The notes below the pieces were generated by a model. The model did no database searches and was not told where the DNA came from. It saw only the letters and a list, made by a program, of their open reading frames with translations. Positions 5,619 to 21,148 of a DNA stretch of 55,111 nt are shown here, piece by piece. The number at the start of each line of letters is the position of its first letter. Position 1 is the first letter of the stretch. The stretch covers positions 1 through 55,111 of the forward strand of contig JANRJA010000175.1 of the NCBI GenBank assembly GCA_033764315.1. The letters run 5' to 3'. The position numbers were made by a program, and so were the translations under genes. The DNA is from Oculatellaceae cyanobacterium bins.114 (GTDB lineage Bacteria > Cyanobacteriota > Cyanobacteriia > Elainellales > Elainellaceae).

Positions 5619-5934
5619 TGGGCACCTCCATCGGTTTTTCCGGTCGTTGTGCTTGGCTTAATTTGCGCTCTAAAGCTCTCAAGGCTTCTTCAGGTAGTCG
5701 GGTTTGGAAATAAACCCAATGCCGTTCTGGTGGGCGTTCTTGCAAGGCTGTAAGGATGCTTTCGATTGAGTAGTTGGGATTGCGACTGAGGGCTGCGATC
5801 GCCCACTGTGTCACCCGCTCGTCAAGGATTAGAAGGTTCCGACCCGAACGCTCTGCCATGCCGTGCTCAATCAGCAGGCATTGGAGGTTCACAAAGGTGT
5901 CGATCAGGTGCTTTTCCCTGGTGATGATTGCCAT
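5605..5934 (-). CDS. Hypothetical protein
   Basis: GGAGG RBS; operon position. Confidence 0.6.
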   Translation of the reverse strand: MAIITREKHLIDTFVNLQCLLIEHGMAERSGRNLLILDERVTQWAIAALSRNPNYSIESILTALQERPPERHWVYFQTRLPEEALRALERKLSQAQRPEKPMEVPSETT

Positions 5935-7447
5935 ATATCCCCCCTCCTCCGTAGTCAGCGGACTGAGGCGATCGCTTCCAAGCCTCTAAAATCTGGCTTA
6001 AATCGCTGAAACCTCCACCAGATGGGCTATTACACCCTGATCCATCCAAATCCCACCCCTTAAACCACTCCTGAACCACATCCAATGCGGGTTTACGGCC
6101 ATCACTAGGCAATAAGCTTTTAGCCGCATTTGGGCGCGGCGCTCCAACGCCAGCGACCAATAGGCTTTCTGATAAACACTGGGGGGGCGCGGGGGGGTTA
6201 TCCACAGGCTCAACCTCTGCGGGTCTGCCGATGTATTCGGGGTGCCACAGATCCAGGTGATGGTAGAGGGTTTCTCCTGAAAAGCCGTATTCGGCGGTCA
6301 AGATGTTGAATCTATCGGTGATGCCTGCTGGAAACCGCTCTTGGTTGAGCAGATCAGCGATCGCAAAACAGATGCGCTCGATCGCCCTTGCCTTGAGAAA
6401 GTCATTCCACTTCGTCCAGGTGGGCTTAACTTTCTTCTGCTCTGCCTTGCGAGTGGGAGTTTGTCCGTAGGGGTAGTATTTCGAGTTCTCAACGCACCTT
6501 GCCCAGTCAGTGGCCCTCGACCAAATCTCAGTTTTGTGCCTGCAATAGCGGTTGTATCCGGGAAGCGAGGCAGCAACTTTGACGATTTGAGCAACCAGGC
6601 GATCGCCCGTTAATGGCTCACCGCCATCAATCCGGTGGCGAAAGATGTACTCTCTCAGCGTGATCCGGCCCAGCAGGTGATTGGTCTGCCCAAAATCAGT
6701 CCACCCCGGTTCGATCTCGGTATCGAGGTCGCTCAGAAATTTCTCACCCTTGTAGCCAATCCGGCGATAGTTGGTATTGGCAATCTTTCGGAGTCGCTCA
6801 AACTCCTCCTCGTCAACGACATTTCGCGCTTGGCAGAACTGCCACTGCTTCACGAACTCAGCGGGGCTATCCCAGCTCAATGCCCAGTTATCGGTGAGCA
6901 AGTAACTGCCTGCCTGGAGGGGCAAGCGGTGGGCTTTGTATTTAGCAAAGGATTGCTTTTCGATGTCGTAGTTGCAGACATTGGGGAATGTCTCTAGGAG
7001 GCCATCTGCCACCTTTAAGCCTTTGCATTCGAGCAGGTGACGAACCACCAAAGCCAGCTCCCAGCTCGATTGCCCATTTGAGAGGGGGAAATACAGATGG
7101 ATGCCATTGCTGTAGGAACTGGTGACAGGGACAAAGCTGGTGATGCCAATTGTTTCGAGTGCCTCAATGATTCGGGAGATGGCAAAGCGATCGCGTCTGG
7201 GGTGGTAGTAGCTGCCCCAGTCGATGTCGAGCATCAGGTAGTTGGTCTTTGAGCTGAAAGAAACTCCGTAGAGGTGCTCTCCAGCCTTGAGCATTCGATC
7301 TGATAGGGGGTAACGATCTTCACGCTGCCACTGTGGGGCTTCGAGGGGTTTGGAATGTGGCGCAAATAGAAAATCGTAGCGATAGGGGAAGAGGTTAAAA
7401 AACGGGTCATTTTCAGGAATCGAATGAAACGTCATATCACGAGCCAA
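5867..7447 (-). CDS. Putative primase-like (AEP superfamily) replication initiator
   Basis: LMLDID (DxD) and TSSYSNGIHLY (SxxGxH) motifs; position in the early operon. Confidence 0.6.
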   Translation of the reverse strand: MARDMTFHSIPENDPFFNLFPYRYDFLFAPHSKPLEAPQWQREDRYPLSDRMLKAGEHLYGVSFSSKTNYLMLDIDWGSYYHPRRDRFAISRIIEALETIGITSFVPVTSSYSNGIHLYFPLSNGQSSWELALVVRHLLECKGLKVADGLLETFPNVCNYDIEKQSFAKYKAHRLPLQAGSYLLTDNWALSWDSPAEFVKQWQFCQARNVVDEEEFERLRKIANTNYRRIGYKGEKFLSDLDTEIEPGWTDFGQTNHLLGRITLREYIFRHRIDGGEPLTGDRLVAQIVKVAASLPGYNRYCRHKTEIWSRATDWARCVENSKYYPYGQTPTRKAEQKKVKPTWTKWNDFLKARAIERICFAIADLLNQERFPAGITDRFNILTAEYGFSGETLYHHLDLWHPEYIGRPAEVEPVDNPPAPPQCLSESLLVAGVGAPRPNAAKSLLPSDGRKPALDVVQEWFKGWDLDGSGCNSPSGGGFSDLSQILEAWKRSPQSADYGGGGIYGNHHQGKAPDRHLCEPPMPAD

Positions 7448-7488
7448 TAAGTAAGGCCCCAGCTCAGTTGCCTAAGCCAGGGCGTTGT

Positions 7489-7896
7489 CTAGGAGGGAGA
7501 GCTAGGGGCGTATTCAGTCGCCCATGCTTTGATGTGCGAGCACCGCTCAACTTGATTCTCAGGAGCAACCTTAGACCAAGCTTCTAGAGCCACCAGCAGT
7601 TCATTGAATAAGTCTTGAGGAATAACCATGCAATCTGGCTCTGTGGGCTGAATCAAGCCGCAGTAGCCACAGATGGTTTGTTCTCTGGAAGGCAGCAAGT
7701 TTGCTGAGTGGCAGTAGACGCATGTGGGGGTGCTAGTCGCTTCTTCAAGCGAAAGGTAGCGATCCAAAGCACAGCAGATGATTGCATCCCCATCTAGATC
7801 GGGGTTGCGCTGTTGATGAGCAAACAGCCGTTGTTGCAGCAATTCTGGGATCTCAACAAAGTAAGTAGTGGTTGACTCGTAAGGTTGTTGGCTCAT
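7489..7896 (-). CDS. Hypothetical protein (RHH-like N-terminus, zinc ribbon)
   Basis: CVYC...CGYC. Confidence 0.6.
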   Translation of the reverse strand: MSQQPYESTTTYFVEIPELLQQRLFAHQQRNPDLDGDAIICCALDRYLSLEEATSTPTCVYCHSANLLPSREQTICGYCGLIQPTEPDCMVIPQDLFNELLVALEAWSKVAPENQVERCSHIKAWATEYAPSSPS

Positions 7897-8288
7897 GCCG
7901 CACTACCCTCCACCACTGCATTGGTTTCGATCGCAGTTGCTTTCAGGGCCTCTAAATATGCAATCAGAAGGGCGATCGCTGGTTCGTCTTGAGGTTCGCT
8001 GCTGAGAGATGGCTCCTCAGCTTTGCGCCACACATCCGCGCTGTATTTAGGTTCGTCGTTCAGATCTAAAACCATCTCCAGAATGAAGCACCAACCCTCC
8101 TGAGAGGCGATCGCGTGCTGAACCATCTCCTGAAGCATCGCCCAGTTCTCGCAGCTCAAGTCCCCCTTGTAATAAATGGGGTAGCGATCGAAACCAATCC
8201 AGGCGATTGGTAGATGCTTGTCGAACTTGCACGAATCAGGTTGTAGGTCTGCCCATTGCTTAAGAAGGTCTAAGAGTTTGTTGGTCAT
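7893..8288 (-). CDS. Hypothetical protein
   Basis: ATGA-coupled ORF. Confidence 0.65.
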   Translation of the reverse strand: MTNKLLDLLKQWADLQPDSCKFDKHLPIAWIGFDRYPIYYKGDLSCENWAMLQEMVQHAIASQEGWCFILEMVLDLNDEPKYSADVWRKAEEPSLSSEPQDEPAIALLIAYLEALKATAIETNAVVEGSAA

Positions 8289-9325
8289 GCCGCACCTCCA
8301 ACCGCGATCGCGTGTTTGCCATTGCCATTGGAGGGATTTGCTACAACCATCTCCAGGTCAACAGGTGGGCGATCGCCTGTCTCTAACTCATAAAGTTCGT
8401 GCAGAGCGTGGAGTTTGAGTAGGCAGGCTTTTTCATCAGCATCTAGCTGCTTCCGTGACTCTTCAAGGCGTTTGAGGGTGGCTCTCAAGGTTGAGATGTG
8501 ATTCTCAATGCGCTTTAGGATCGCAGTTTTCTCGTCGGCGGATGGCTTAGTAGATTCCAGTTCACGGCATCGATGCTCTAGCTCGGCAATTTTTTGTCTC
8601 AGTGCCCAAACTTCTGTTTCTTTGGTTTCCGCAACAGGAGTTGGGGGTGTTGCGGATTTGGTTTCTGCCTCTGTTTTGATCCGTTCTCGATATTGAGCAA
8701 TCGCATGATCGGCTCGATATTTCAAATCGCTAAATTCTGCCTCGTAAAAGACTCCGCGCCCTACACCTGCTTTTTTGCGGATAGTTTCAAGGGTTATTTT
8801 TGCCCCTGATTTCTCTAGGGCAGCGATCGCTTCAATCACTCTCTTTCTGATCTCGTCAGCAGTGGATTTTGCTTTGTGTGAGAGCTGTGGCTCGGTAGCC
8901 ACATCAAACTGACTGAGGCGATCAATAATCGGCTCTGGTTGTGTCATGGCAGGTTTGGTGGGAGAAGGTTTGGGTTTTGCCACTGAGTTGCGCTGTGGTG
9001 GCGTTGCACTAATCAGGCTGGGGTCAAAGTAAGTTTTGCAAGGCTCAGGAGGCTTGGCGGCGCGAAACAGCTTGCTGTCTCGCACTCCAGGCTCATAATC
9101 AATCGCCCAAGCTCTGATCTCTGGATGCACTTTGCTGGAAAAGCGATCGCAGCCCAGCCGGATTTCACCTCTTTCAAAAAGGTGGGTGAGAGTGCGGTCA
9201 GTGATAGCGCGGCTGCAACCCAGCTTCACGTCAAGCCTGGGCTTAGTGATGCCTGGGCTCTGAGTGATTATCACAAGGGCACAATCGCACTGATGCTCAA
9301 ATTCGCTGCTGCTGAGTCTGCTCAT
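8285..9325 (-). CDS. DNA-binding protein (HTH plus coiled coil, DUF6262/KfrA-like)
   Basis: VIEAIAALEKSGAKITLETIRKKAGVGRGVFY followed by a coiled coil. Confidence 0.6.
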   Translation of the reverse strand: MSRLSSSEFEHQCDCALVIITQSPGITKPRLDVKLGCSRAITDRTLTHLFERGEIRLGCDRFSSKVHPEIRAWAIDYEPGVRDSKLFRAAKPPEPCKTYFDPSLISATPPQRNSVAKPKPSPTKPAMTQPEPIIDRLSQFDVATEPQLSHKAKSTADEIRKRVIEAIAALEKSGAKITLETIRKKAGVGRGVFYEAEFSDLKYRADHAIAQYRERIKTEAETKSATPPTPVAETKETEVWALRQKIAELEHRCRELESTKPSADEKTAILKRIENHISTLRATLKRLEESRKQLDADEKACLLKLHALHELYELETGDRPPVDLEMVVANPSNGNGKHAIAVGGAA

Positions 9326-9558
9326 GATTGCGCCGCCTCACTCCGTTGTAATTCGTCGATTAGGGCGATCGTTTGGGCTTCCTCAAGGCTGATAGTCGTT
9401 GGCTCGTCTCGGCATTTGAGCCAAAGCAAATACTTGCGGTTCCAGTCGCTCAGGTTGCCGCTCAAAAGGGTTTCAATCTTTTGGTGGGAAGAGTGTGAGC
9501 GATCGTGTGTTATTGTTGTGGCTTGAACTTCAATCATTTGTGTCTCCGTGTGAGACAA
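9322..9558 (-). CDS. Hypothetical protein
   Basis: Coupled to the downstream gene; start uncertain. Confidence 0.5.
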   Translation of the reverse strand: MSHTETQMIEVQATTITHDRSHSSHQKIETLLSGNLSDWNRKYLLWLKCRDEPTTISLEEAQTIALIDELQRSEAAQS

Positions 9559-9597
9559 AAAGCCGCTCAGCCAGTGCTAAAGGGAGAGCGGCTTTTT
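9557..9597. terminator. Bidirectional terminator/attenuator hairpin
   Basis: AAAAAGCCGCTC ... GAGCGGCTTTTT. Confidence 0.6.
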
Positions 9598-9604
9598 GTT
9601 GTGA

Positions 9605-9766
9605 TTAGGAAGCTTTGGCGATCGGCTGGGGTTGAGAGTTGCGCTCGATGTATTCATCAATAGCGGTACTGGCAACCTCTCTCATTTCCCGTCCGCTAAG
9701 AGCTGCAAAAACTTTTAGCTTTCGGTGAATTTCTTGACTTAGAAGTACTTGAGGGTTGGTTTTCAT
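9605..9766 (-). CDS. Ribbon-helix-helix regulator (Cro position), 53 aa, not in the ORF track
   Basis: Translated by hand: MKTNPQVLLSQEIHRKLKVFAALSGREMREVASTAIDEYIERNSQPQPIAKAS. Confidence 0.75.
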   Translation of the reverse strand: MKTNPQVLLSQEIHRKLKVFAALSGREMREVASTAIDEYIERNSQPQPIAKAS

Positions 9767-9907
9767 TTCAGATCTACCAATCGACTAATTCACTTAGCTT
9801 AGAAAAGCAAAAGCTTTTTGTCAATAAAGGCAAATGTTTTTGCTCTAATCCTAATATTTGCCGTGCTACCGTTTGTGTAAACCAAAAGCACTTGGTTGAT
9901 TGGCTCA

Positions 9908-10624
9908 ATGGATTTATCCGACGAACAACAGCGATTGCTATTTGCAAGGCTGGCAAGACATTTAATGGAAGGGTTGGGCGAAACTCGTGATGAGTTTGCT
10001 GCCCGTTTTGACATGACAACCCAAAATCTTTGGTACTGGATCGGATCAAAAAACAATCCGATTGCTCGCACTAGTCCATCAAAAATTGCACCAAAACACC
10101 TCACTACATTGGCGTCTTTGGCGGGCTGGTCAATTGAACAGCTTTGGTTTTACTTGAAGACGGGCAATGAACCCAGTAATGATTCAGTAGCTAACCTGAA
10201 GCTACTAATGCAGTCGGCCCCACTGACGGATGTTGAAGCGGCGATCGCGATTGGCGTACGCCGTTTGGCTCAAGCTGCTGGCGTTCCCGCAATTGAACGC
10301 CCTGTTGATGTAGCATTAAATACTCAAGATGTTAAGTATAAGAAAACGTATATATCTAGAAACAGCCAAGAGGGGGTTACTATGTCGGTCGGCTCCATGA
10401 TTGCAGGAGGTTTGCAAAAGTCAGGGGATAAATTCATTGTGGCGTCTGGTCTTAGCGAAAGCAGGCTAAAGACCCTGGCCAACAATCCGTCGCTAGCGAG
10501 CAACGAAGAGCTGGAGGCAATTGCTAAAGCACTCTACAGTACCAAAGTCACCAAAGAACTTTGGACGGTTGCAGAGCTGCACGATTTAATTCGTACCACT
10601 CGCCGACCCACGGGTCAGACTTGA
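9908..10624 (+). CDS. Putative immunity repressor (XRE-like HTH)
   Basis: ETRDEFAARFDMTTQNLWYW HTH; divergent from the early operon across an AT-rich spacer. Confidence 0.6.
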   Translation: MDLSDEQQRLLFARLARHLMEGLGETRDEFAARFDMTTQNLWYWIGSKNNPIARTSPSKIAPKHLTTLASLAGWSIEQLWFYLKTGNEPSNDSVANLKLLMQSAPLTDVEAAIAIGVRRLAQAAGVPAIERPVDVALNTQDVKYKKTYISRNSQEGVTMSVGSMIAGGLQKSGDKFIVASGLSESRLKTLANNPSLASNEELEAIAKALYSTKVTKELWTVAELHDLIRTTRRPTGQT

Positions 10625-10950: not shown

Positions 10951-11278
10951 ACCCTTAATATTGCCTCAGTATTCTCCCTGAGTGCATTAGTGTTTATACG
11001 AGTCGAGAAGCAGTATTATGCAGCACCCTTTTAATCGAGCTGGTGACGGTCGTCACATCTCCGTTTAAACTGAAACAACAATATTAGTACATTGATACTA
11101 ATTGCGATCGCAAATCCGCACAGTTGCGTAATGAGTTTGACGATATGTGCTGACAGACGCTAATGCATTTGAGATGATTTTCAACGGGCAGCCAACTTTT
11201 CCAGGGTCGGGCTGCCCGTCGTTGTTTTTGGGAGATAGACGGTAGACCGCTAACGGTGCACCGTCTTATTTGCATTGT

Positions 11279-11497
11279 ATGAGATTAGGTGGTGAAGAAA
11301 TCACGCCAAAATTGTTGCGCGAACGAGTAGGTTTAACGCAGCAACAGGTGGCGATCGCTTTGGGCAAAAGGGTCGGGACTGTCTCGGAGTGGGAGCGCAG
11401 GCTCTACGCGCCCCGATTGACGTTTAGGGAGACCTTGAAACTGATGGAGATTTATCAATGCACACTAGAAGATTTGGCTGAGGCTTTTGATGAGTAG
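11279..11497 (+). CDS. XRE-family HTH regulator
   Basis: LRERVGLTQQQVAIALGKRVGTVSEWER; AGACGGT..ACCGTCT inverted repeat upstream. Confidence 0.9.
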   Translation: MRLGGEEITPKLLRERVGLTQQQVAIALGKRVGTVSEWERRLYAPRLTFRETLKLMEIYQCTLEDLAEAFDE

Positions 11498-11592
11498 CGA
11501 TCGCCCAACTTCATCAATACTTCATGACTGCCACCTGTTAAACCCTATGAATACAAGGGCATTTTGAAAGAAGCGTTTTGTTCACTACCACC

Positions 11593-11934
11593 ATGAAAAG
11601 ATTTTTGCTTGCGTTTGCAGCGGTTTCCCTGCTTGCTGGGTGTGCCGCTCCTACCCCTACTTCCACATCCTCCGGCTCTACAGCCCCTACTTCCTCCAGT
11701 CCCAGTCCCACCGCCAGTGAAATCACGCTTGAAAAATACAATCAAATCAAAGCTGGCATGACCCAAGATCAGGTTGAGGAGGTTTTGGGCAAAGGTACTG
11801 AGATGAGCCGCGTTGAAATGCCCAATGTGCCCGTAACTGTGGTTTACATGTGGCAGAACCCGAACGGCTCAAATATGAACGTAACCTTTCAAGGCGGTAA
11901 GGTCGTTACCCTAGCTCAGTTTGGATTGAAATAA
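11593..11934 (+). CDS. Lipoprotein (DUF3862/BLIP/SmpA-like), possible superinfection-exclusion factor
   Basis: Signal peptide with LAGC lipobox, S/T/P linker, ITLEKYNQIKAGMTQDQVEEVLG. Confidence 0.8.
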   Translation: MKRFLLAFAAVSLLAGCAAPTPTSTSSGSTAPTSSSPSPTASEITLEKYNQIKAGMTQDQVEEVLGKGTEMSRVEMPNVPVTVVYMWQNPNGSNMNVTFQGGKVVTLAQFGLK

Positions 11935-11966
11935 TTCGATTTGTTTATCGTGGTGGACTCTAAGCA

Positions 11967-11995
11967 AAGCCCCTGATCTAAGTGGTCAGGGGCTT
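11967..11995 (+). terminator. Intrinsic terminator after the lipoprotein gene
   Basis: AAGCCCCTGA..TCAGGGGCTT followed by a T run. Confidence 0.65.
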
Positions 11996-12091: not shown

Positions 12092-12582
12092 TTACTGACG
12101 AATAATCAGCGGAGTTCCATCTGGAGCCATTCTGAGGAGCAACGCTTGACCTGCGGCTCAGTAATAATGCATCCCTGACTACCATCCTTTAACCCAGTGC
12201 TCATGGTGTGAATGGAATACACAATCGGTAGCCTGCGCTCATAGTTGTAGCCTCCATCCTTAAAAGCCAGAACCGGCATTAAGTGCAGTTCAGGGTCAGC
12301 AGAAATGTTTCTCATAACTTGAAACGTGCCCGTAGGGGTGGGCGTCTCTGGGGCACCGATGCCGATGGGGTAACAGCGGCTTAGGTAGCAAAGCTGGCGA
12401 TCGCTTAGGTCAACAAATATCGCCTGATTTGTATTTGATAGCGATCGCGTTTCGGCTGAATTAGCAATCGGATAATGGGTGCGACTTCCAACTTGAAGAC
12501 AGGTAATTCCTAGCCACAGTAATATCAGCGAGGTCAAAAGGCTTGAAAATTTAGAAGCCATCGCTTTCTCCGATAAATTCAA
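12092..12582 (-). pseudogene. YkuD-like L,D-transpeptidase, apparently frameshifted near the C-terminus
   Basis: IFVDLSDRQL, PTPTGTF, IH..SQGC; the alternative frame gives the canonical end MAPDGTPLIIRQ* (stop 12092). Confidence 0.65.
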
Positions 12583-12865
12583 CGTTTACAAGCGGGATGC
12601 TTTTTTTGTCTCTGGTGTTATATCTCGAAGCACTCATCCAGCGGGAAATTACCCGCCACTGATACCCACCCCAGTCAATAAAATCACCGGGGATTGGATC
12701 GGCATAAAAGCCCATCAAATATCTCCCTTCAATTTGCTTGCTTTTCTCAAAGGTCATTCCTTCTTTGACCGAACCAGGTAAGAGAAAATCTACCATCCAA
12801 AAGACCTGTTTTCGAGTTGCTTGAACAGGGGTTGCATCAACCCCAAAGCTCATAAATTTAGGCAT
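12551..12865 (-). CDS. Hypothetical protein
   Basis: ATG ORF overlapping the L,D-transpeptidase start region. Confidence 0.6.
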   Translation of the reverse strand: MPKFMSFGVDATPVQATRKQVFWMVDFLLPGSVKEGMTFEKSKQIEGRYLMGFYADPIPGDFIDWGGYQWRVISRWMSASRYNTRDKKSIPLVNVEFIGESDGF

Positions 12866-12902: not shown

Positions 12903-13059
12903 TGTTGGGCATTGAAATTTGTTGGGTGGCTTGTTGGGTAGGTTGTTGGGTTGTTGGGTAAATTTGTTGGGTAAGTGCTGTTGGGTTGTTGGGTTGCCTG
13001 TTGGGTCGTTACCCAACAACCCTTTCTGGGGGTCTACCCAACAACCCAACAACCCAACA
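12903..13059. repeat. Heptamer/octamer repeat locus: 9 x TGTTGGG then 4 x inverted CCCAACA (clt-like or centromere-like)
   Basis: Counted directly; begins at the stop codon of the ATPase gene. Confidence 0.9.
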
Positions 13060-13061
13060 GT

Positions 13062-14609
13062 TCACCCAATAGAGTTAAGTTTCTGATAGTAAAAATCTTC
13101 TTGCTTGGTAAGCTTGCCCTCTGCCACAAGCAAATCAAGATACACAGAAAGATCTTCAGAACTAACCCCAACCAATCCCTTGGCCTTGCTCATCACAATG
13201 TCTCTAACTTTGTGCTTTTGCCCAGAGCGTTTAGAGAACCAAGACAGCAGTGATTCTTCAATCGTTGGCTCACCTTCGCTCACTTTAGGCTGTAGCTCCG
13301 TGCTCTCAAAAAGCTCTGCATCGTCGGGCAAGCTGAAAGCACTTGCAGTGGGTTGATTGTCAACTTGAGAGCGCGTGTCTCGGTTGTATCCAGAGTGGTT
13401 TTCAAGGGATGGCATTGCATACCAATGCTGCCCATCACACCAGCAGCGACTGACTGGAGATTCGTCCATTTTGGCTTTGATATCTGCCATATTTCGAGCC
13501 GAATCAGCCACAAATTTGGCAGCTAAAACCGCCTCAATTTGCATTTCCTCTCCCCTCAATCCAATGATGAGAAGTCTGAATCTAGAGCGAGCTGCACCAT
13601 TGACTCTAAGGTCATCAGTGTGAGCACTTTGCCCTGCTTCAAAGACGTATTTTTGACGGCTATCACCTGTGCTCACTAGGGCGTTAACCGCTTCTACATA
13701 GCGGCGTGAGTGTGTGCGTACCTCAGTGCCCTCGTTACAGATGAGGATTGCCATCTCAGGTACGCTCAAAAACTCATCTAAACAGCCCTCAATCCAGTCC
13801 TTAGCCTCTCTCCAGGTAGCGATCGCGAGGTTCTTGCGATAGAGAGTCGTGTTAGGCAGATTTGCATAGTAGGCCGTTTCCTTGGGGTCATCTTTGCAGT
13901 CCATCACAAAGAATTTGAACCCTGGCCTCTGGGCTATCAATTGCCGCAATACGTTGCTGAGCACAATATCTTTGCCACCACCGCTGACACTGACAATCAG
14001 CGAGGTACGCAGACGAGAGCCAATCAGGTGATCTACGGGCGATCGCAACTCCACAGCTTTTTCCTCCTTGACCTCCTCAGCAGGGGTGTCTAGAACTGTT
14101 GCGTCAAATGGATTAGCAACTGCTGGTTGTTGCGACTGCTGAGCATGTGCAGGTGTGGGTGTGCTGACAATTGGCTGTTGCACCGGCTGTGGGTGGCTCA
14201 CCACAACCGGAGTAATCGCGGTGGGCTCAGGAGCCGCAATTGCCTTGACTGGAACCGTTGCAGATAGTTGATAGTGTTTCGAGTCTTCTTCGTATGCCTT
14301 GCGATCGCTCTCATCCAACAGGTCTACAAAATCGCCTGCAACGATTCTGCGACGTGATTCAGCACGCTTGTTGTAGGTCTGATACCAGTTGTAAGCAAGT
14401 AGCCCCGCAAAGATGGGGGCTATCCCCATGCCTCCGAAAAAGACAGCTACTGCACCAACTGCTAGATGCTTGATGGCTGAAAACACATAGTTGTCCTGGC
14501 TTTGCAATTGACGCAGTGCAGCCCTTTGATAAACCAGTTCGGGGGTTAGTTTTCCTGTTCTTTCAAGCTCTAACAGAGCTTCAATCTCTTTTGGTGTAAG
14601 ACTTTGCAT
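13062..14609 (-). CDS. Membrane-anchored FtsK/TraB-like P-loop ATPase with C-terminal winged helix
   Basis: N-terminal TM segment, P/Q-rich linker, SVSGGGKD (Walker A variant), VMDCK, ILICNE (Walker B variant), EAGQ, C-terminal wHTH-like region. Confidence 0.65.
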   Translation of the reverse strand: MQSLTPKEIEALLELERTGKLTPELVYQRAALRQLQSQDNYVFSAIKHLAVGAVAVFFGGMGIAPIFAGLLAYNWYQTYNKRAESRRRIVAGDFVDLLDESDRKAYEEDSKHYQLSATVPVKAIAAPEPTAITPVVVSHPQPVQQPIVSTPTPAHAQQSQQPAVANPFDATVLDTPAEEVKEEKAVELRSPVDHLIGSRLRTSLIVSVSGGGKDIVLSNVLRQLIAQRPGFKFFVMDCKDDPKETAYYANLPNTTLYRKNLAIATWREAKDWIEGCLDEFLSVPEMAILICNEGTEVRTHSRRYVEAVNALVSTGDSRQKYVFEAGQSAHTDDLRVNGAARSRFRLLIIGLRGEEMQIEAVLAAKFVADSARNMADIKAKMDESPVSRCWCDGQHWYAMPSLENHSGYNRDTRSQVDNQPTASAFSLPDDAELFESTELQPKVSEGEPTIEESLLSWFSKRSGQKHKVRDIVMSKAKGLVGVSSEDLSVYLDLLVAEGKLTKQEDFYYQKLNSIG

Positions 14610-14622
14610 CGTTTTTGCTTCC

Positions 14623-14644
14623 AAAAAAGGGGCATTGCTGCCCC
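14623..14644 (-). terminator. Terminator-like hairpin directly upstream of the ATPase start
   Basis: Minus strand GGGGCAGCAATGCCCC-TTTTTT. Confidence 0.5.
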
Positions 14645-14669: not shown

Positions 14670-15452
14670 TTAGTTATTGGCAAAGTGGTTGGTTGCGACG
14701 CTCACCACCAATTTGTAAGCCTGATAGACCAATTCGACGGCAAACAGCGTGCCAAAGGCGTTGAAGATGTTGCCCCAGTCGAGGTAGTCCCACGCACCGG
14801 CTGCAAGCAGAGGAAGATTTACCCAACCACCTTGAACTGGGGGATAAAACCATAGGCAAATGCCACCATCAATTAGGTAGGCGACGGCTCTGCCGACATT
14901 GGCACGCTCTATCGCCTCTTCTGGAATGGAGTTAAATCGTGCTTTCAGTCGCCTGGTGAGTGGACTGTCATTTGCATCTTCTTTGAGGCGTGACCATTGT
15001 TTGATGCGAATCAAGGTGCTGAGGATGAATGCGGGTGAGTCCATCATGAGCGTTGGCAAAAGTTCAAGCCCTTGCAGAGCACACCAAAGCAGGAAAGCGG
15101 TTATAGCAACAAGAATGCCGCCTACACCTCCAAAAATCAGGTTCACCCCAGGGATGCCCATGATGAGTATCCCTAGCCCTGTATCAGCCCACTGCCCGAT
15201 CGCCTTGGAGACGATATCAACATACGGGCGAATGTTGCTGAGGATGAAGAATCCGCCAGTTGCCATCAGGCTGATTTTCAGAATCTCAAGAATTCTGTGT
15301 TCGCGGCTATCAATGCCCTCGATAGGCTCTGCCTGGGGTTGAGGTTGTTGGGGTTCGTGTTTGCGAGTCTCCGATTGCTGCGTTTCTTGCTTTTGCTGGC
15401 GATCTCTTAATCGCTTTCTGAATCGGTTTCCAACGGTTTTAGTTGAGGTCAT
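14670..15452 (-). CDS. Multi-pass membrane protein
   Basis: Basic N-terminus and several hydrophobic segments. Confidence 0.75.
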   Translation of the reverse strand: MTSTKTVGNRFRKRLRDRQQKQETQQSETRKHEPQQPQPQAEPIEGIDSREHRILEILKISLMATGGFFILSNIRPYVDIVSKAIGQWADTGLGILIMGIPGVNLIFGGVGGILVAITAFLLWCALQGLELLPTLMMDSPAFILSTLIRIKQWSRLKEDANDSPLTRRLKARFNSIPEEAIERANVGRAVAYLIDGGICLWFYPPVQGGWVNLPLLAAGAWDYLDWGNIFNAFGTLFAVELVYQAYKLVVSVATNHFANN

Positions 15453-15462
15453 GGCAATTTCC

Positions 15463-15954
15463 TTACTGAGCGGGGTTGTTGTGCTGGGGAATTGAATCGA
15501 GAGTGGTGTAGCGGAGTTTGGCCTGCTCGACTACGAGGCGATCGCTAGCAAACGCCATACTGGTGAGCCTGCCGCCTTTCAAAATCCCTGTGTTTCCAAG
15601 GTGGTCACAGTAAACGCCACCGTTTGGCAGTGGCTGGTTGGTGACAGGATCTAGAATTGCTTGCCCCTCTTGCAGGGCAACGAATGAGGCGCGATTGCGA
15701 CTAAACACCATCTGACAACCCTCCTCGTAACGCTTTACAGCGATCGCGTTTTGTCGCTCGGCTGAGGCAGTATCGAGCATCGCCTGACGCTCTATTTCTT
15801 GATTGGCCTCGATAATCTCGCTACTGGCCGCACGGCTCTGACTCATCTTGCGAAGTGAATCACCACCGTTCATGACGATGAACACCAGGGCGATTAGCCC
15901 TCCAACGGCGTATACGGGGTCAATCTGGGGAATCTGAAGCTGTTTTTTCATCAC
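15463..15954 (-). CDS. Single-pass membrane protein
   Basis: VYAVGGLIALVFIVM TM segment followed by a coiled coil. Confidence 0.7.
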   Translation of the reverse strand: MMKKQLQIPQIDPVYAVGGLIALVFIVMNGGDSLRKMSQSRAASSEIIEANQEIERQAMLDTASAERQNAIAVKRYEEGCQMVFSRNRASFVALQEGQAILDPVTNQPLPNGGVYCDHLGNTGILKGGRLTSMAFASDRLVVEQAKLRYTTLDSIPQHNNPAQ

Positions 15955-16262: not shown

Positions 16263-16342
16263 AATGAGGTATCTCCTTTTTCGAGAGGGGTGAAGCAATA
16301 GCCACTGCAACGGGGTGAGATTCGTGAGCGGTGGCTATTGCG

Positions 16343-16570
16343 TTAGTCAAGTAGTCCGGCAAATTCCGCGAGCGTTGCGGATTCAGGAGTGCTTTCCTGT
16401 ATGGGTGACATTGAACTAGGGTGAGCATTGAGGCAAAGGAGAAGTGTTTCTCGCTGGATGCAAACTGCCAAGATGAGATCTGAGATATCTGTGGTTCCAA
16501 ATTCGTCGGAAGCTTTCATCAGGCGGTCTATGGCAAATTGGCGGATTGAGTAGCGACCAGATGAGTTCAT
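16343..16570 (-). CDS. Small ParR-like adaptor (putative)
   Basis: ATGA-coupled to the ParM-like gene; size and position typical of ParR. Confidence 0.5.
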   Translation of the reverse strand: MNSSGRYSIRQFAIDRLMKASDEFGTTDISDLILAVCIQRETLLLCLNAHPSSMSPIQESTPESATLAEFAGLLD

Positions 16571-17655
16571 CGCCCACCACCTAACAGCACCGCAAACCGA
16601 CGCAACCCGCGAGCATTAGCCCATGCCCCGTCCTTGACGGGTACAATTCCCTGCTGGGTGAGTAGCTCTGAGATCAGGGGCAACTGCGAGCCACCACCAA
16701 TCGCGATGCTGTGTGAGCAAGTAGGTCGCCACTTTGAGCCAGCTTTGAGAGCGGTTTTGAGGACTGCCACGATCCAGGGCTTTAGCTCGCTGCGGTAAAT
16801 CTCCTCAAAGCTCCAACCTGTTTCGCCGTAGCGGAAAGAGCCAGTTTCAATTCCAGCGCGAACGATCTGGCGATCGCCTTCCTGCGAGAGCTGTCGAACC
16901 AAGTCAATATTTTTGGCGATCGCATTGATCAGGTTCTCGACACCGCCTGGTCTAACCTCTCGGTCAACTAGGCGACCTTTGGAGCCAAACACACTGATGA
17001 TGCAGGTTCCGTTGCCAAAGTCGTAGACCAGTGTTTGTTTTTCGGGGTCAATTTCCGAGCGGCATTGAACGATCGCCCCAGCTCCTTCCTCCAGGGTTTT
17101 GAGAATGTTGACAGTGATGGTCGTTTGTTTGCCGCAAGCATTGAACTCAACAACATGCTTGCCTTGCAAAACCGCCTGTAATTGGTCGCCAAATGCTTTT
17201 TGTAGATGGATAGAGGCAACCAAGTTGAGAATCATTTGAGCCTGATAAGGCAATGTGGCGAGGCATCCTAAGAGCAGATGTAAGCCATATGTAATCTTGC
17301 CTTGAGGGTCGTCTACTACCCTGAAATAGCTCTCAGGGTTTTGCTGGTAAGCAGGATGGCCAGCCAGCCAACGCGAGCCTTTAAGGTCAGTGCGATCGCC
17401 ATCGATATAAGCCACCAGTCCACCCTGGTCGCTGGTGGGTGGGTCGTAGATGTCGGCGTGAATTGGCAGGATGTAGCTAGGGCAGCGAACTTCGTGGATA
17501 TCGAGAGCAAGCTTGACTGAACCGTTGCCACAGTCAAAGCCTCCCGGCATGGGGTGACATGTTTCTGTCAAATCCTGACGGTTTTCTGACGGTTGCTTGG
17601 GTTGGGGTTTGGGGGTCATGGCTGATGGATTTAGGGTCAATGTTGCGTCACTCAT
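16567..17655 (-). CDS. parM: ParM/StbA-family actin-like ATPase
   Basis: GFDCGNGSVK (phosphate 1), EEGAG (connect 1), YDFGNGT (phosphate 2), AIGGGS (adenosine), ANARGL. Confidence 0.9.
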   Translation of the reverse strand: MSDATLTLNPSAMTPKPQPKQPSENRQDLTETCHPMPGGFDCGNGSVKLALDIHEVRCPSYILPIHADIYDPPTSDQGGLVAYIDGDRTDLKGSRWLAGHPAYQQNPESYFRVVDDPQGKITYGLHLLLGCLATLPYQAQMILNLVASIHLQKAFGDQLQAVLQGKHVVEFNACGKQTTITVNILKTLEEGAGAIVQCRSEIDPEKQTLVYDFGNGTCIISVFGSKGRLVDREVRPGGVENLINAIAKNIDLVRQLSQEGDRQIVRAGIETGSFRYGETGWSFEEIYRSELKPWIVAVLKTALKAGSKWRPTCSHSIAIGGGSQLPLISELLTQQGIVPVKDGAWANARGLRRFAVLLGGGR

Positions 17656-17780
17656 GGTTTTGAGGTGATTGATGGGTAGAAGTAATGCAAAAGTAGCCTG
17701 TCAAAATCTGCCTAATTTCTGGCGATTTCCTGACAGTGCATCTACACAATAAAAAACCCCTGGCTAGGGGTCAAGGGATT

Positions 17781-17799
17781 TACTGTAATATCTCCAGTA
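17781..17799. promoter_or_regulatory. Operator-like palindrome upstream of the parM operon
   Basis: TACTGTA-N5-TCCAGTA, variant of the site at 18209. Confidence 0.5.
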
Positions 17800-17810
17800 T
17801 TTAATTTTGC

Positions 17811-18101
17811 TTATAAGTTACCTTGCGATCGCAATTGTTCAATAACGGCTCTCATGATGTCTTCACTGCCAGAGCTGGCAACCTCAACTATCCGTTTGAT
17901 CGTTAAAGCGTAGCCCAGAGTGTTTTCGTATTGAGGGGGCATGTCGGGAAAGTCAATCCCAGAACCCCATCGCTCAACAGTGTCAACCTTTACGCCAATC
18001 ACCTCAGCTAAAAGATTGACGCATTTTTTGCGATACCCCCAGGCTTGCTCGCCCTCTTCTGTGACATTAAACCAATTTCGGCAGAAGTCACGCGGTTTCA
18101 T
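17811..18101 (-). CDS. HTH-like regulator
   Basis: LLAEVIGVKVDTVERWG; likely start MKPRDF at 18101. Confidence 0.65.
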   Translation of the reverse strand: MKPRDFCRNWFNVTEEGEQAWGYRKKCVNLLAEVIGVKVDTVERWGSGIDFPDMPPQYENTLGYALTIKRIVEVASSGSEDIMRAVIEQLRSQGNL

Positions 18102-18208
18102 GGTTTTAGGCAAAGTGACAGACAACACTCTACCTTTACTCGCTAATAGCAACATTTGCGTCACGTTTAATGGAGCCTTTCCACCAAATTTAGCATGAAT
18201 TCTTTGTG

Positions 18209-18233
18209 AACTACTGGATACTTTCCAGTAGTT
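18209..18233. promoter_or_regulatory. Perfect operator palindrome in a divergent promoter region
   Basis: AACTACTGGA-TACTT-TCCAGTAGTT. Confidence 0.6.
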
Positions 18234-18287
18234 TATGTATATTAGAGATATGGGGCAACACCCCAAACCTTCAAACCAAACAAGCCA

Positions 18288-18584
18288 ATGCAATCACGCC
18301 AAATCAAAGCCCAAAACTACAACGCCACGATCGCCTCTCTTAAGGGAAACGATGCCTGGTGTAACGACTGCCAAATGCTTAAAGTGCTTTGCCCCTGCAA
18401 CAGCACAAATCCCACCAACGCCGATGTTGATGCCTTGCTCAATCGTGCCGCTGAACTCAACGGCACACCAGTCTATGACGATGGCGATGATTCCTTGATT
18501 CCCGATGACTGGGATGACCTGTGGCAACGCTACAACCAGTTTGTTGGCGATCGCCCCTACCTGTCCGATAGATCGCCTGCCTGA
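18288..18584 (+). CDS. Hypothetical protein (Cys cluster)
   Basis: WCNDC...CPC; first gene of the rightward early unit. Confidence 0.55.
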   Translation: MQSRQIKAQNYNATIASLKGNDAWCNDCQMLKVLCPCNSTNPTNADVDALLNRAAELNGTPVYDDGDDSLIPDDWDDLWQRYNQFVGDRPYLSDRSPA

Positions 18585-18782
18585 GAAACATCGCGATCGC
18601 CCCTCTAAAACCTTTAACCACCATGACTGACAACAAACAACAAACCCCTAAGCCGCCGCCGTACTGCATGGCTCAACCCCGACCTTTACCCCCCCCTGAC
18701 CCTAAAACTGGTAAGCCACGGGTTTAAAAGCCGAAAGGCGATCGCCTGCCTGAGAAACATCGCGATCGCCCCTCTAAAACCT
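18571..18782 (+). repeat. 43-bp direct repeats (18571-18613 and 18740-18782)
   Basis: GATCGCCTGCCTGAGAAACATCGCGATCGCCCCTCTAAAACCT twice. Confidence 0.9.
18623..18727 (+). CDS. 34-aa proline-rich micro-ORF between the direct repeats
   Basis: MTDNKQQTPKPPPYCMAQPRPLPPPDPKTGKPRV. Confidence 0.4.
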   Translation: MTDNKQQTPKPPPYCMAQPRPLPPPDPKTGKPRV

Positions 18783-18830
18783 CCTACCACTCGGTAGGAA
18801 CCCCCAAACCAAACAGTAAGGATTAATAAC

Positions 18831-19331
18831 ATGGTATCAACACCGATCAAGATTTCAACCGAAGAAGATGAGAAGCGTGGTAGTGGTCGGCTTCAACCTC
18901 AAAACTTCCGAACGCCCACCGGCTTGTGCATCCAGTTCATCCAGCAGCATCTGGATCGTCCCGTATGGGATGTTTCAGTTACTTTCCCCGTCGCCCGCTT
19001 CTTAGGCAAGATTGAGCACGCTCGTAGTGGCTGGAAAATTGTCAGTGTCAATCGCCAACCCCACGCCGACATGGTTAGTCACCCTTCTTATGAGGAAGCA
19101 GCGATCGCCCTGTTAGACCTTTGCCGCAAGCCTGCTAGTCTACCTGATGCCAGCAAAACAGCCCATGAAGTGGTTCTCACTCACCCTCGAAAAAGCAAGG
19201 TCTTGATTGTGGTGCTGACTGCCACCGACGCGGCTACAGACGTATTTCGTGAGATTCAAAATCAGTTGAGTATTCGGCGGTTAAACGGTTACTCGATCGC
19301 ATCCCTCAAGCTCTTATCCGACCCGTTCTAG
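18831..19331 (+). CDS. Hypothetical protein
   Basis: AAGGA RBS and ATG. Confidence 0.65.
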   Translation: MVSTPIKISTEEDEKRGSGRLQPQNFRTPTGLCIQFIQQHLDRPVWDVSVTFPVARFLGKIEHARSGWKIVSVNRQPHADMVSHPSYEEAAIALLDLCRKPASLPDASKTAHEVVLTHPRKSKVLIVVLTATDAATDVFREIQNQLSIRRLNGYSIASLKLLSDPF

Positions 19332-19409
19332 CAAGCCAATTGCCCCTACTCCCCCAAGTGGGGGCAAACATCCCCCTCTTGCCCTCTTACCCCCTCACCT
19401 CCTAAGCCC

Positions 19410-19655
19410 ATGTACAACCTTAGAGCGCGACTCGAAGAACACCGAAGACGCTTGCTTGCCTCATGCCCAGTGCCCTCAGAGCCGCATGTACAAGCCTTTG
19501 AAGCTGACTGCTCAGACAGTGTCCGCGATACGGTGAACCATATCAGAACTGTGATGAACGAACTGGACACAGAGCGACTAGGGGAACTCCAGCACATGCT
19601 CGAAATACTCGCCGATGAAGCCCACGCAATGGCGATCGCCAATCAAGACCTATGA
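19410..19655 (+). CDS. Hypothetical protein
   Basis: ATGA-coupled to the Rad52-family gene. Confidence 0.6.
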   Translation: MYNLRARLEEHRRRLLASCPVPSEPHVQAFEADCSDSVRDTVNHIRTVMNELDTERLGELQHMLEILADEAHAMAIANQDL

Positions 19656-20092
19656 CCTTATCTGAAATCTTTCCTGAACTGACCGCCAAATTTGAGCCAC
19701 AGGAGCACAAGAAACGCACCGTGCCTGGTGGTGGTGATTGGTACTTTGTGCCCTGGCAGACGATTAGAGCACGGCTCAACCGTGTCTGCCCTGACGACTG
19801 GACAAACGTTTACTCAGACCTCACCTTTGTTGAAGGCTATTGCATCATCGTTTGCACCCTGACCATTTGTGGTGTAAGCCATCAAGGGATTGGCTCAACC
19901 CAGATTGAGATTCTAAATGCCCAGGGCAAGAACACAGCCTATGGCGACCCGATTGAACGGGCAACCGCCGATGCTTTCAAGAATGCCGCAGAGCAGTTTG
20001 GTATTGCAGCTTATCTGGACGCTCAAAGTGACCCCAGCAAGAAGCAGGCATTCTTCAACTACGTGAGCGGTCGCACCAAAGCGGCTGCATAA
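19652..20092 (+). CDS. Rad52/Rad22-family (Sak-like) ssDNA annealing protein
   Basis: FVPWQTIRARLNRV...GIG...ATADAFKNAAEQFGIAAYL. Confidence 0.85.
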   Translation: MTLSEIFPELTAKFEPQEHKKRTVPGGGDWYFVPWQTIRARLNRVCPDDWTNVYSDLTFVEGYCIIVCTLTICGVSHQGIGSTQIEILNAQGKNTAYGDPIERATADAFKNAAEQFGIAAYLDAQSDPSKKQAFFNYVSGRTKAAA

Positions 20093-20167
20093 TAAGCTTA
20101 GATTGCAATTCAAACATTCACGCTCACACCCCTACCAACTTGGTGGGGGTTTTGCTTTAAAGCACTT

Positions 20168-21148
20168 CTAAAGCATGTCTCCCAACAGGTCTGTCAGATC
20201 GCGTTGGTGATTTATCCGGTTGTCGTCATACACCATCAGCGTTTCAATCCGCTTATGACGGCTGAGCTTCTTTACACGCCGCACATCACCCCCAGTTGCA
20301 TCTAGAGCTGCCGTAACGCTGGAGTGGCGAATCCTGTGGGGTGAGAGGTGCTTCTGCACGCCGGCTGCGACAGATGCCTCAACCACCAGGTTGTAGATGG
20401 CGTTGCCCGTGATCCGCTTGCCAGGGCTGTTGTTAGAGAGCGAGATAAAGAGAGGGTCTGAAGGGTGAAGGGTGAAGGGTGAAGGCTGAAAGCGAGCAGC
20501 AAGCCATTGGGCGATCGCGTCCACCGTCCCAGAATTCAAGCTCACCCACTCTGCTTGGGTGCCTCGCCCTTTCCCCAAAATTTGCAGCCGTGCTCCCTGC
20601 TGGTCGAAGTCCTTCACATCACACTTCACTAGCTCCCCCCGGCGGAGTGCGTTCGACCAGAGCAGGATCAGAATTGCGTAGTTCCTTAGCCCCAGCAGGC
20701 TAGAGCGATCGACGCTACTCAAGATTTGGCTGTAAATGTCCCTCTCGACTCCACTGGTATCGCGGTAGTGTTGCACCTTCTCACCGTCGATTTCTTCCAG
20801 ACTCCACTGGCATTTATCAACCTTCTGGGCAAACTTTACCAGGCTCTTAATCGCTGCCAGCCTGCGGTTAATCGTTGCCTCAGCCAGGTTTCGCTCAATC
20901 AGCCCTGCTTTGTATTGCAACACTAGGGAGATGGCAGTGGCTCTCTCTAACTTTAGGAATTCCGCAACGAGCTGCGGGTTTGGTTCGTGCCCTGAAATCG
21001 ATTTGAAAAAGTCTTTGAGGTCTTTAGCGTAGGCTCGGCGGGTTTCTGGCGATCGCTTGTCTCTGAGCAACTCGGCTACTAAATCTCGCTCTTGAACTTT
21101 GAAAAAACTACTCGGCTGGAGTGAGTGAGGTTGAATGCTTGCATCCAT
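20168..21148 (-). CDS. Tyrosine recombinase (Cre/XerC-like resolvase)
   Basis: LRRGE, GKG, HRIRH, SRH, terminal Y (VYDD); N-terminal SAM-like domain. Confidence 0.92.
   Translation of the reverse strand: MDASIQPHSLQPSSFFKVQERDLVAELLRDKRSPETRRAYAKDLKDFFKSISGHEPNPQLVAEFLKLERATAISLVLQYKAGLIERNLAEATINRRLAAIKSLVKFAQKVDKCQWSLEEIDGEKVQHYRDTSGVERDIYSQILSSVDRSSLLGLRNYAILILLWSNALRRGELVKCDVKDFDQQGARLQILGKGRGTQAEWVSLNSGTVDAIAQWLAARFQPSPFTLHPSDPLFISLSNNSPGKRITGNAIYNLVVEASVAAGVQKHLSPHRIRHSSVTAALDATGGDVRRVKKLSRHKRIETLMVYDDNRINHQRDLTDLLGDML

Follow-up and report, generated by a model that had tools for sequence, protein, structure and literature searches.

The 55,111-nt window (the whole stretch of DNA analysed here) encodes a contractile-tailed cyanophage together with plasmid-type replication, partition, and resolution genes. 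With moderate confidence, we read it as an integrating temperate cyanophage that acquired a cyanobacterial integrative or plasmid backbone, whose genes would copy and sort the circle formed on excision and probably also pump it. The phage genes and their regulators were located as follows:

9896..10624, plus strand: candidate repressor, diverging from the leftward early operon (role from position only)
11270..11497, plus strand: Cro/CI-type helix-turn-helix regulator (Pfam)
18571..18790, unstranded: two 51-nt direct repeats (94%) at a spacing of 169 nt, in a stretch with no convincing gene; candidate origin or operator (repeat scan)
19652..20092, plus strand: Rad52/Rad22-family annealing protein (Pfam)
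21313..22047, plus strand: SigF-like sigma factor, first gene of the rightward (late) transcription unit (family match)
26956..53013, plus strand: head and contractile tail, with terminase, portal, capsid, endolysin, sheath, tube, tape measure, and baseplate (Pfam, PHROGs)

The virion, packaging, and lysis genes expected of a phage-plasmid were thus all present. The candidate repressor matched no family in Pfam or PHROGs; homologues of the helix-turn-helix regulator recurred near parM and rep in related elements. Element and genome are both HIP1-rich, which indicates a cyanobacterial host and not an actinomycete. Within the window, no complete tRNA gene or Rfam family was found, and promoter and terminator scans reached chance level only. 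The host assembly contained no spacer-length match to the phage at E 1e-5, and a search of 56 further genomes from the same order found no counterpart of the terminase at E 1e-20. A phage collection yielded no match for Rep, capsid, or a related ATPase, and IMG/VR no confirmed relative of ParM or the ATPase and three loci for Rep. Since none of 11 capsid-related virus records carried the Rep, ATPase, or membrane genes, a plasmid- or ICE-type backbone looks to have been grafted onto the phage.

Integration at tRNA-Phe by a serine integrase is well supported by the sequence at the ends of the window:

1..251, unstranded: left end, the final 29 nt of tRNA-Phe plus 222 bp common (98%) with the left end of a second element on contig C172
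25-183, minus strand: small Zn-finger-like ORF inside the left end
53425..54978, plus strand: XisF-family large serine integrase (438 bits against a cut-off of 375)
54980..55111, plus strand: 3' part of tRNA-Phe (54980-55034), then 77 nt that repeat the window start exactly; either a circle's attP or the junction to the second element

The support is threefold: the integrase, already named as such in the preliminary description and well above its family cut-off, abuts the tRNA copy (the 3' two-thirds of tRNA-Phe begins 1 nt past its stop codon); the tRNA-Phe site is empty in a genome of the same genus (G426); and the 251 bp are shared with a resident element. An integrating phage should carry an integrase and an att site matching a host locus, and both were found. 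Serine integration into tRNA genes is described as rare (PMC3218068). Window and C172 were identical over positions 1-141 and 98% identical to position 251 (mismatches at 142, 165, 232, and 233), diverging from 252; past the shared block, C172 continues with a different 12.4-kb element, another tRNA-Phe 3' copy, and then host genes. Most simply, the shared block would be the scar of an earlier tandem residence.

The contig ends can be joined into a circle, and the preliminary description took the assembly to be circular, with attP intact. That claim was not confirmed: the terminal repeat (106 nt) is shorter than the commonest contig-end overlap in the assembly (141 nt, 36 end matches), and its sequence is common to the window, C172, and host contig C220, which ends with a full tRNA-Phe followed by window positions 1-141. 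Because the end sequence also lies on C220 and C172, the right end has the two readings listed above; with 168 nt separating the closest informative bases, the assembly cannot phase circle versus tandem. Tandem integration fits the assembly as well as a circle does. In this sample, the phage was probably integrated in tandem with the 12.4-kb element, an arrangement only just favoured over a circle. Circularity cannot be deduced from a terminal repeat when that repeat lies at a tRNA att site.

The plasmid-type genes for replication, partition, and resolution were the following:

5867..7447, minus strand: AEP primase-polymerase-type Rep of a cyanobacterial plasmid family (AlphaFold model and homologues)
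16343..16570, minus strand: ParR-like ribbon-helix-helix protein, overlapping the parM stop (strand-helix-helix pattern)
16567..17655, minus strand: ParM-like actin with intact phosphate motifs (Pfam ALP_N above cut-off)
20168..21148, minus strand: tyrosine recombinase from a clade of cyanobacterial plasmids, probably a dimer resolvase (Pfam Phage_integrase and SAM domain)
21193..21209, minus strand: candidate res site, 44 nt upstream of the tyrosine recombinase

Two assignments of the preliminary description, an AEP-like Rep and a ParM with a ParR-like partner, were borne out, and a third, a Cre/Xer-like tyrosine recombinase, was borne out in part. The AlphaFold model of Rep matched AEP prim-pols (CAPP prim-pol at E 3e-7; RepB' at E 1.4e-5), its DxD and GxH motifs were invariant in 67 aligned homologues, and homologues occurred on 74 plasmid records, every genus listed being cyanobacterial; the window had no Pfam Prim-Pol match. 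Identity with CyRepX was rejected on the lack of a tblastn match to the slr6031 locus at E 1e-4; Slr6031 itself we take to be about 1100 aa long, with helicase motifs. The integrated 12.4-kb neighbour carries the same Rep family (54% identical), and two Rep-family records are classed as proviruses.

The top solved-structure sequence match of ParM was a ParM, and its family, common in cyanobacterial plasmids, occurred on 88 plasmid records. The ParR-like protein has no Pfam family; of 66 distinct small genes lying immediately after parM homologues, most share its pattern, and a profile built without the window's own gene recovered it at E 1.4e-7 among 60 window proteins. Both partition motor and adaptor, as expected of a phage-plasmid, were therefore present. 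The gene at 17811-18293 is not favoured as ParR, since the conserved gene with the ribbon-helix-helix pattern sits downstream of parM. No repeat array that might serve as parC adjoins parM or parR; a cluster of CCCAACA repeats is 3.3 kb distant and, in homologues, its counterpart comes after the ATPase gene. A ParM 77% identical to that of the window was found on a 55.7-kb contig. Members of the clade also lie within scaffolds of 7.7 and 8.2 Mb and, in 5 of 29 loci screened (L035, L042, L054, L057, L063), the module sits beside tRNAs or tRNA fragments and tyrosine integrases; no ParM homologue was seen on the 12.4-kb neighbour. As the module also occurs on tRNA-anchored elements with integrases, ParMR is no proof of plasmid lysogeny. 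More plausibly, it leads an operon for partition plus DNA transfer.

The tyrosine recombinase has the family match and catalytic-type motifs, but falls below the XerC/XerD cut-offs. It was matched on 109 plasmid records at E<=1e-60, the best being Leptolyngbya boryana pLBA (NZ_AP014639; 56% over full length), which was deposited as a plasmid and also carries a terminase and a Rad52 homologue (48%). The res pattern, picked after looking, lies upstream of 15 of 31 recombinase homologues and downstream of none. At about 20 kb from the att site, in a plasmid clade, and with a candidate site of its own, the enzyme is unlikely to be the phage integrase.

Downstream, the parMR operon ends in membrane proteins and an FtsK/HerA-type ATPase that the preliminary description had passed over:

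12106..12582, minus strand: YkuD (L,D-transpeptidase-like) with an N-terminal hydrophobic segment, the operon's last gene (Pfam)
12551..12865, minus strand: small conserved gene, behind the ATPase in 11 of 31 homologous-operon rows
12903..13059, unstranded: 13 exact CCCAACA copies (4 in one orientation, 9 in the opposite one) immediately past the ATPase stop codon; candidate clt-like loading site
13062..14624, minus strand: membrane-anchored FtsK/HerA-superfamily ATPase with a winged-helix-like tail and deviant Walker motifs (GGGKD, CNE)
14670..15452, minus strand: conserved membrane protein of 260 aa with two predicted hydrophobic segments
15463..15954, minus strand: conserved membrane-anchored protein of 163 aa

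Among the 31 rows with 7 kb of sequence or more, 24 had the ATPase on the parM strand and downstream of parM, a count in which some rows are near-duplicates and the operon-conservation profiles were built from the same loci as were scored. The ATPase is predicted to have a hydrophobic segment at its N-terminus and a helical tail at its C-terminus. Structural matches included HerA (Z 14.1, rmsd 3.5, 203 aligned), TcpA (Z 13.1, 3.4, 191), and FtsK (Z 12.4, 3.1, 186); the best were tied among HerA, EccC, VirB4, a viral packaging NTPase, and TcpA, with TrwB also among the matches, and thus the fold does not single out TraB. No window protein matched Pfam FtsK_SpoIIIE, the tail had no Pfam match above cut-off, and no relaxase, VirB4, or type IV secretion family was found among 79 window proteins (Pfam). 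The deviant Walker motifs mean that ATP-driven pumping is not assured; their invariance in the 54 aligned homologues of the subfamily suggests selection. Many viral packaging ATPases match the fold, but a role as packaging motor was rejected: the phage has its own terminase, and the family occurs on virion-less plasmids. In genome G435, a serine integrase and the same Rep and ATPase families share one contig, which has no match to the window's virion proteins.

Elsewhere in the 6.6-Mb genome, the largest separate CCCAACA cluster has 3 copies. A single 6-mer recurs six or more times behind 27 of 35 ATPase genes, compared with 7 of 145 control ORFs. Its sequence varies from element to element, so that an adjacent element-specific short-repeat locus, as in TraB-clt, is present. 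Trees of ATPase tail and body conflict: L059 groups with L077 by body (100/100) and with L045 by tail (99/98), and L059 and L077 are 89% identical in the body, 19% in the tail, and differ in repeat motif. The window's tail is closest to that of L077, and CCAACA occurs within the repeat motif of each. Across the full set of pairs, similarity in motif followed similarity in tail weakly (rho 0.10, 89 of 3000 permutations; partial 0.08, 145 of 3000), with rho 0.09 for the ATPase body (189 of 3000). These patterns suggest that tail and repeat motif may swap together, like Streptomyces TraB/clt; being adjacent, they could also be inherited as a unit even if the tail does not bind the repeats. Alternatively, the repeats could function as parC or as an origin.

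The proposed order of events is as follows: at rest, the phage would be integrated at tRNA-Phe, here probably in tandem with the 12.4-kb element. After excision, judging from gene families and layout, Rep would prime replication of the circle, the tyrosine recombinase would resolve dimers at the site upstream of its own gene, and ParMR would position or segregate the copies. The ATPase may then load on the CCCAACA cluster via its C-terminal tail. Together with both membrane proteins, it may pass double-stranded circles through the septum or to a cell in contact, relaxase-free, as does Streptomyces TraB/clt. More tentatively, the phage may have four routes (insertion into the chromosome, a circle that segregates itself, virions, and cell-to-cell transfer of the whole double-stranded genome by relaxase-free pumping, for example along a filament), with a TraB/clt-like machine in which the DNA-reading tail and the repeat code are exchanged as one cassette.

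The preliminary description had proposed a switch between integrated prophage and episome. Its integration half stands on the integrase at the tRNA-Phe copy, the empty site in G426, and the 251-bp block; a stable plasmid state does not, the circle not being established by the assembly, although the gene set makes an extrachromosomal phase plausible. A switchable phage-plasmid, inherited over generations either as an episome segregated by ParMR or in the integrated state and using the pump mainly to secure inheritance across the septum, is possible but doubtful. The plasmid records of the Rep, ParM, and recombinase families, the candidate res site, the closable contig ends, and terminase-bearing pLBA are consistent with it, as is circular Scytonema NIES-4073 plasmid2 (AP018265), deposited as a plasmid, with a terminase, capsid, portal, sheath, and tape-measure homologues, and ParA. 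Neither plasmid showed the window's Rep, ParM, ATPase, or serine integrase (tblastn). The occurrence of the Rep family on the integrated neighbour and in provirus-classed records, and of the ParM clade on integrated elements, argues against such a switch, as does the lack of a recognised toxin-antitoxin pair in the window (Pfam, PHROGs); autonomous replication by the Rep family is predicted only, no published demonstration having been found.

It is improbable that the module is simply the lytic-cycle kit of an ordinary integrating prophage, with Rep replicating and ParMR positioning the excised genome as AlpAC does for Corynebacterium prophage CGP3, and with the pump genes as ICE-like passengers or in an intracellular role. 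CGP3 is a precedent (PMC4446434), Rep reads into a leftward early-type operon, the capsid relatives manage without the module, and the Walker motifs are deviant; yet the module genes are all intact, in conserved order, with all 13 exact repeats retained, and the deviant motifs appear to be under selection. Far less probable still is a coupling protein for relaxase-mediated single-strand transfer, with helpers in trans and the repeats as part of an oriT. TcpA, VirB4, and TrwB are among the structural matches, and two relaxase-family genes lie on other contigs of the host genome, but the window itself has no Pfam relaxase, a Fischerella plasmid with parM, a same-family ATPase, and repeats is typed as non-mobilizable, and the motif is element-specific and changes with the ATPase tail.

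Phage-plasmids with integrated and episomal states are known (phiC725A, phi80b/phi84b, P88; PMC7969092; PMC10879196). The window resembles phage-plasmids in combining full virion genes with a putative replication initiator, partition genes, and a probable resolvase-type recombinase, and an integrase can coexist with these (PMC7969092, PMC10879196); it differs in its cyanobacterial-plasmid AEP Rep, actin-type partition, and FtsK-type membrane operon with repeats, and its episomal maintenance is putative. The main texts of those two papers do not mention cyanobacteria. With AICEs and Streptomyces TraB/clt and Spd, the window shares a tRNA-gene integrase, a prim-pol-type Rep, and a relaxase-free layout (PMC3218068, PMC4447253), as well as a single, putatively FtsK-like membrane ATPase with a DNA-recognition-like C-terminal tail, adjacent element-specific repeats, and membrane-protein neighbours. 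It would work like these elements without being a member: its host is cyanobacterial, with an outer membrane, the Pfam FtsK_SpoIIIE and Prim-Pol matches are absent, ParMR heads the operon, and a complete phage morphogenesis module is present. Streptomyces clt repeats are described as direct, whereas those of the window are direct and inverted; SpdB2 homologues occur on some actinophages (PMC4447253). SXT/R391 likewise integrates and stabilises its excised circle with an actin-type ParMRC (srpMRC), but is non-phage and uses a relaxase and single-strand conjugation (PMC4489591). CGP3 is an integrated prophage whose actin-like protein and DNA-binding adaptor act on the excised circle; its demonstrated function is efficient phage replication, and its abstract mentions no FtsK-type operon (PMC4446434). 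Cyanobacterial ParM forms two mostly plasmid clades, one without known function, and these ParMR/CorMR systems share a ribbon-helix-helix partner with the window (bioRxiv 10.1101/2025.06.27.661541), whose ParM differs in being phage-borne and heading a membrane/ATPase operon; the main text of that preprint does not mention phage.

A literature search (top titles and abstract openings) found no description of a TraB/clt-like system in cyanobacteria or of a ParM-bearing temperate cyanophage. A dual lifestyle alone would be one further case of a known type. The Rep, the resolvase and its site, and the tRNA-Phe serine integrase could serve as small parts in vectors for cyanobacteria. If the pump works as proposed, cyanobacteria would have a relaxase-free DNA transfer so far studied in actinomycetes, a ParM clade of cyanobacterial plasmids would gain a role through the module, and a phage could colonise a multicellular host without particle release.

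The window, which is all of contig C150 of genome G000, carries the genes of a contractile-tailed phage, a serine integrase and a set of plasmid-type genes, as follows:

5867-7447 (minus), Rep
12903-13059, repeat cluster
13062-14624 (minus), membrane-anchored FtsK/HerA-superfamily ATPase
16343-16570 (minus), ParR-like gene
16567-17655 (minus), ParM
20168-21148 (minus), tyrosine recombinase
26956-53013, terminase, portal, capsid, endolysin, sheath, tube, tape measure and baseplate
53425-54978 (plus), serine integrase

The integrase is a large protein of the XisF family, scoring above the cut-off; its stop lies at 54978, and the 3' two-thirds of tRNA-Phe come directly after it. The preliminary description also held that the element had assembled as a circle with an intact attP, which could not be established. 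The contig is the only one of its assembly whose two ends match. Its terminal repeat (106 nt) is shorter than the commonest overlap between contig ends (141 nt; 36 end matches) and is common to two other contigs, C220 and C172. Host contig C220 ends in a full tRNA-Phe followed by window positions 1-141; C172 opens with those 141 nt as well, continues at 98% identity to position 251, and then becomes a different 12.4-kb element (element 2), with a tyrosine integrase, a Rep 54% identical to the window's, and tail-fibre-like genes. The right end of element 2 is another tRNA-Phe 3' copy, followed by a host nitroreductase gene; in a genome of the same genus (G426), tRNA-Phe is directly joined to the nitroreductase gene. 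The contigs are consistent with two paths, either host, phage, element 2 and host in tandem, or a phage circle plus an integrated element 2; of the bases that discriminate them, the nearest pair is 168 nt apart. Because the tandem path uses every contig once, we lean slightly towards tandem integration. Beyond the tRNA, phage and element 2 have 222 bp in common, containing a small Zn-finger-like ORF that was not detected in two further elements at tRNA-Phe (in G443 and G471), which suggests that the two once adjoined and swapped left ends.

Element 2 (L001:1-12425, on G000:C172) also encodes an HTH protein, a collagen-repeat protein and two unassigned proteins of 258 and 238 aa; its Rep is of the AEP type, and neither a terminase nor a recognised capsid was found in it. 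The sole Atlas match of the 258-aa protein was an unnamed, mostly viral cluster (TM 0.79), and a relative with a different Rep lies at tRNA-Phe in G471. Element 2 may be a satellite, or else a small virus without a tail. In these cyanobacteria tRNA-Phe is a hotspot for integration; in G443 it is occupied by a 17-kb element (L210, G443:C31:65500-85000) that brings an integrase of its own together with uncharacterised genes.

The plasmid-type genes first reported held up. Rep has the AEP primase-polymerase fold with invariant DxD and GxH motifs, and homologues of it were found in 74 plasmid records, the phage collection yielding none; its identification as CyRepX (described in PMC10899382) was rejected. 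ParM passed Pfam ALP_N, and 88 plasmid records carry homologues of it; a further ParM, with 77% identity, is encoded on a contig of 55.7 kb. Its proposed ParR-like partner, a 75-aa gene overlapping the parM stop, was recovered (E 1.4e-7) by a profile built without it. Its RHH-like pattern recurs in most members of a set of 66 distinct small genes that lie behind parM homologues (71 of the 110 ParM ORFs examined have such a gene). Among the nearest named Atlas clusters of the 75-aa protein is RHH_1 (0.88), no more than a lead. No parC-like array adjoining parMR was found in the window. The gene described as a Cre/Xer-like tyrosine recombinase has plasmid homologues (109 at E<=1e-60; the best, at 56%, on pLBA, which bears a terminase) and scores below the XerC/XerD cut-offs. 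A search of 301 genomes found the recombinase in 34, G000 among them. A two-arm pattern, selected after the sequences were viewed, occurs upstream of 15 of 31 recombinase homologues and downstream of none of the 31 (shuffles mean 0.1); the window has one copy at 21193-21209, a candidate res site, and two more within coding sequence.

Overlooked at first were the run of genes behind parMR and the repeat cluster. On the same strand follow a 119-aa gene, two membrane proteins, the 520-aa ATPase, a 104-aa gene and a YkuD protein. Of the 110 ParM rows, 31 have 7 kb or more of downstream sequence (window included, L102 twice, three near-duplicate pairs); in these, the window's ATPase family follows in 24 and a longer, Walker A-bearing relative in four; the operon-conservation profiles derive from the very loci scored. 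In the predicted structure of the ATPase, helices at the N terminus, which include a hydrophobic segment, precede a motor domain and a small helical tail (pLDDT 61-77). Structural matches of the motor were HerA, EccC, VirB4, a viral packaging NTPase, TcpA and FtsK, at Z 14.1 to 12.4 with several ties; among viral proteins, the best match was one from a Nodularia phage that is as yet uncharacterised (E 4.5e-11, with a high rmsd). The Walker motifs are deviant yet invariant across 54 aligned sequences; other subfamilies have a canonical Walker A. Facing the operon's end is a lipoprotein with a BLIP/BamE-like domain (11578-11934), a possible exclusion factor. In a family of integrated elements (L035, L046, L056, L057), parMR precedes a Walker-A protein of 714-724 aa and a cluster of GTCCACA-type repeats.

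A 157-nt stretch that adjoins the stop of the ATPase gene holds 13 copies of CCCAACA, 4 in one orientation and 9 in the opposite one; the genome's next separate cluster has 3. Clusters above local controls, their motif varying from element to element, lie immediately behind the stop in 26 of 35 ATPase genes and behind the next small gene in five more. In a matched census, whose low-complexity filter undercounts the window's own motif, at least 6 copies were found at 27/35 ATPase genes versus 7/145 control ORFs. Trees of ATPase body and tail conflict with strong support (28 sequences; 7 of 35 excluded as longer relative, near-duplicates, tail-less or cluster-less): L059 groups with L077 by body and L045 by tail, L036 with the window by body and L084 by tail. 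CCAACA is part of both the window's motif and that of L077, whose tail is the nearest to the window's (34%, not starred in the tree). Over all pairs, the motif-tail correlation is weak and barely exceeds that of motif and body (31 rows, 4 dropped); joint travel of tail and repeats could be explained by adjacency alone. TraB, of the relaxase-free Streptomyces transfer system, has a winged-helix tail; a Pfam search with the ATPase tail gave nothing above cut-off.

The cyanobacterial HIP1 octamer is denser in the window (2.8 per kb) than in the genome (1.6). A filamentous host appears likely, because the module proteins have their closest named homologues in Leptolyngbya-like cyanobacteria. Host contigs encode a Rad52 homologue 83% identical to the window's (G000:C178:14494-14930), a distant ParM-like gene (G000:C55:14560-15192) and a lysozyme homologue 65% identical to the window's (G000:C92:7077-7523). 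Within the window, a radical SAM gene, a 140-aa gene and a ParB-like-domain gene lie directly upstream of the terminase (24576-26906), a possible DNA-modification module; homologues of the first and last occur together in virus record G459. Among the tail genes, a lower-GC 244-aa gene without a family hit is inserted (44203-44937), the other strand bearing an ORF of the same length, and the gene at 48874-50742 contains 69-nt repeats (49890-50168) encoding a repeated peptide unit. Non-coding sequence upstream of the integrase (53014-53424) holds four GGACTA-type words, possibly regulatory sites.

The ATPase family occurs in 19 plasmid records, and the module on a Fischerella plasmid; in 5 of 29 loci screened, the module adjoins tRNA sequence and tyrosine integrases. 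One contig of G435 bears a serine integrase, Rep and the ATPase, with no matches to the window's virion proteins. Rep, ATPase, membrane genes and ParR were absent from all 11 capsid-related IMG/VR records examined (of 12; four incomplete, several fragments), one of which has a distant actin-like gene. Since the module is found on plasmids and integrated elements and is missing in capsid relatives, the plasmid-type backbone appears to have been grafted onto the phage from an integrative element or a plasmid, and the presence of ParMR does not by itself mark a plasmid lysogen.

Phages with both integrated and episomal states have been described (PMC7969092, PMC10879196, and PMC4490671 for one with an integrase plus ParAB), as has actin-type partition on integrated elements (PMC4489591, PMC4446434). 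A preprint on CorM (bioRxiv 10.1101/2025.06.27.661541) recognises, on cyanobacterial plasmids, a ParM clade whose function is unknown. None of the papers listed in our literature searches describes such a module in cyanobacteria. Integrase, prim-pol and FtsK-like Tra define the actinomycete integrative conjugative elements (AICEs; PMC3218068), and TraB binds 8-bp clt repeats (PMC4447253). The window element works like an AICE-phage hybrid, yet is no member of the AICEs.

The proposed switch between tRNA-integrated prophage and segregated episome thus survives in part: plasmid kit, integrase and tRNA copy were confirmed, the circle was not, and the interpretation is partly supported. Stable lysogeny as a plasmid, for which ParMR is no diagnostic, is a tentative alternative; use of the kit in lytic growth only seems unlikely, and relaxase-dependent coupling of the ATPase highly improbable. 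The reading we prefer, with about even confidence, is an integrating phage with a kit that would replicate, resolve and position its excised circle and probably pump it from cell to cell.
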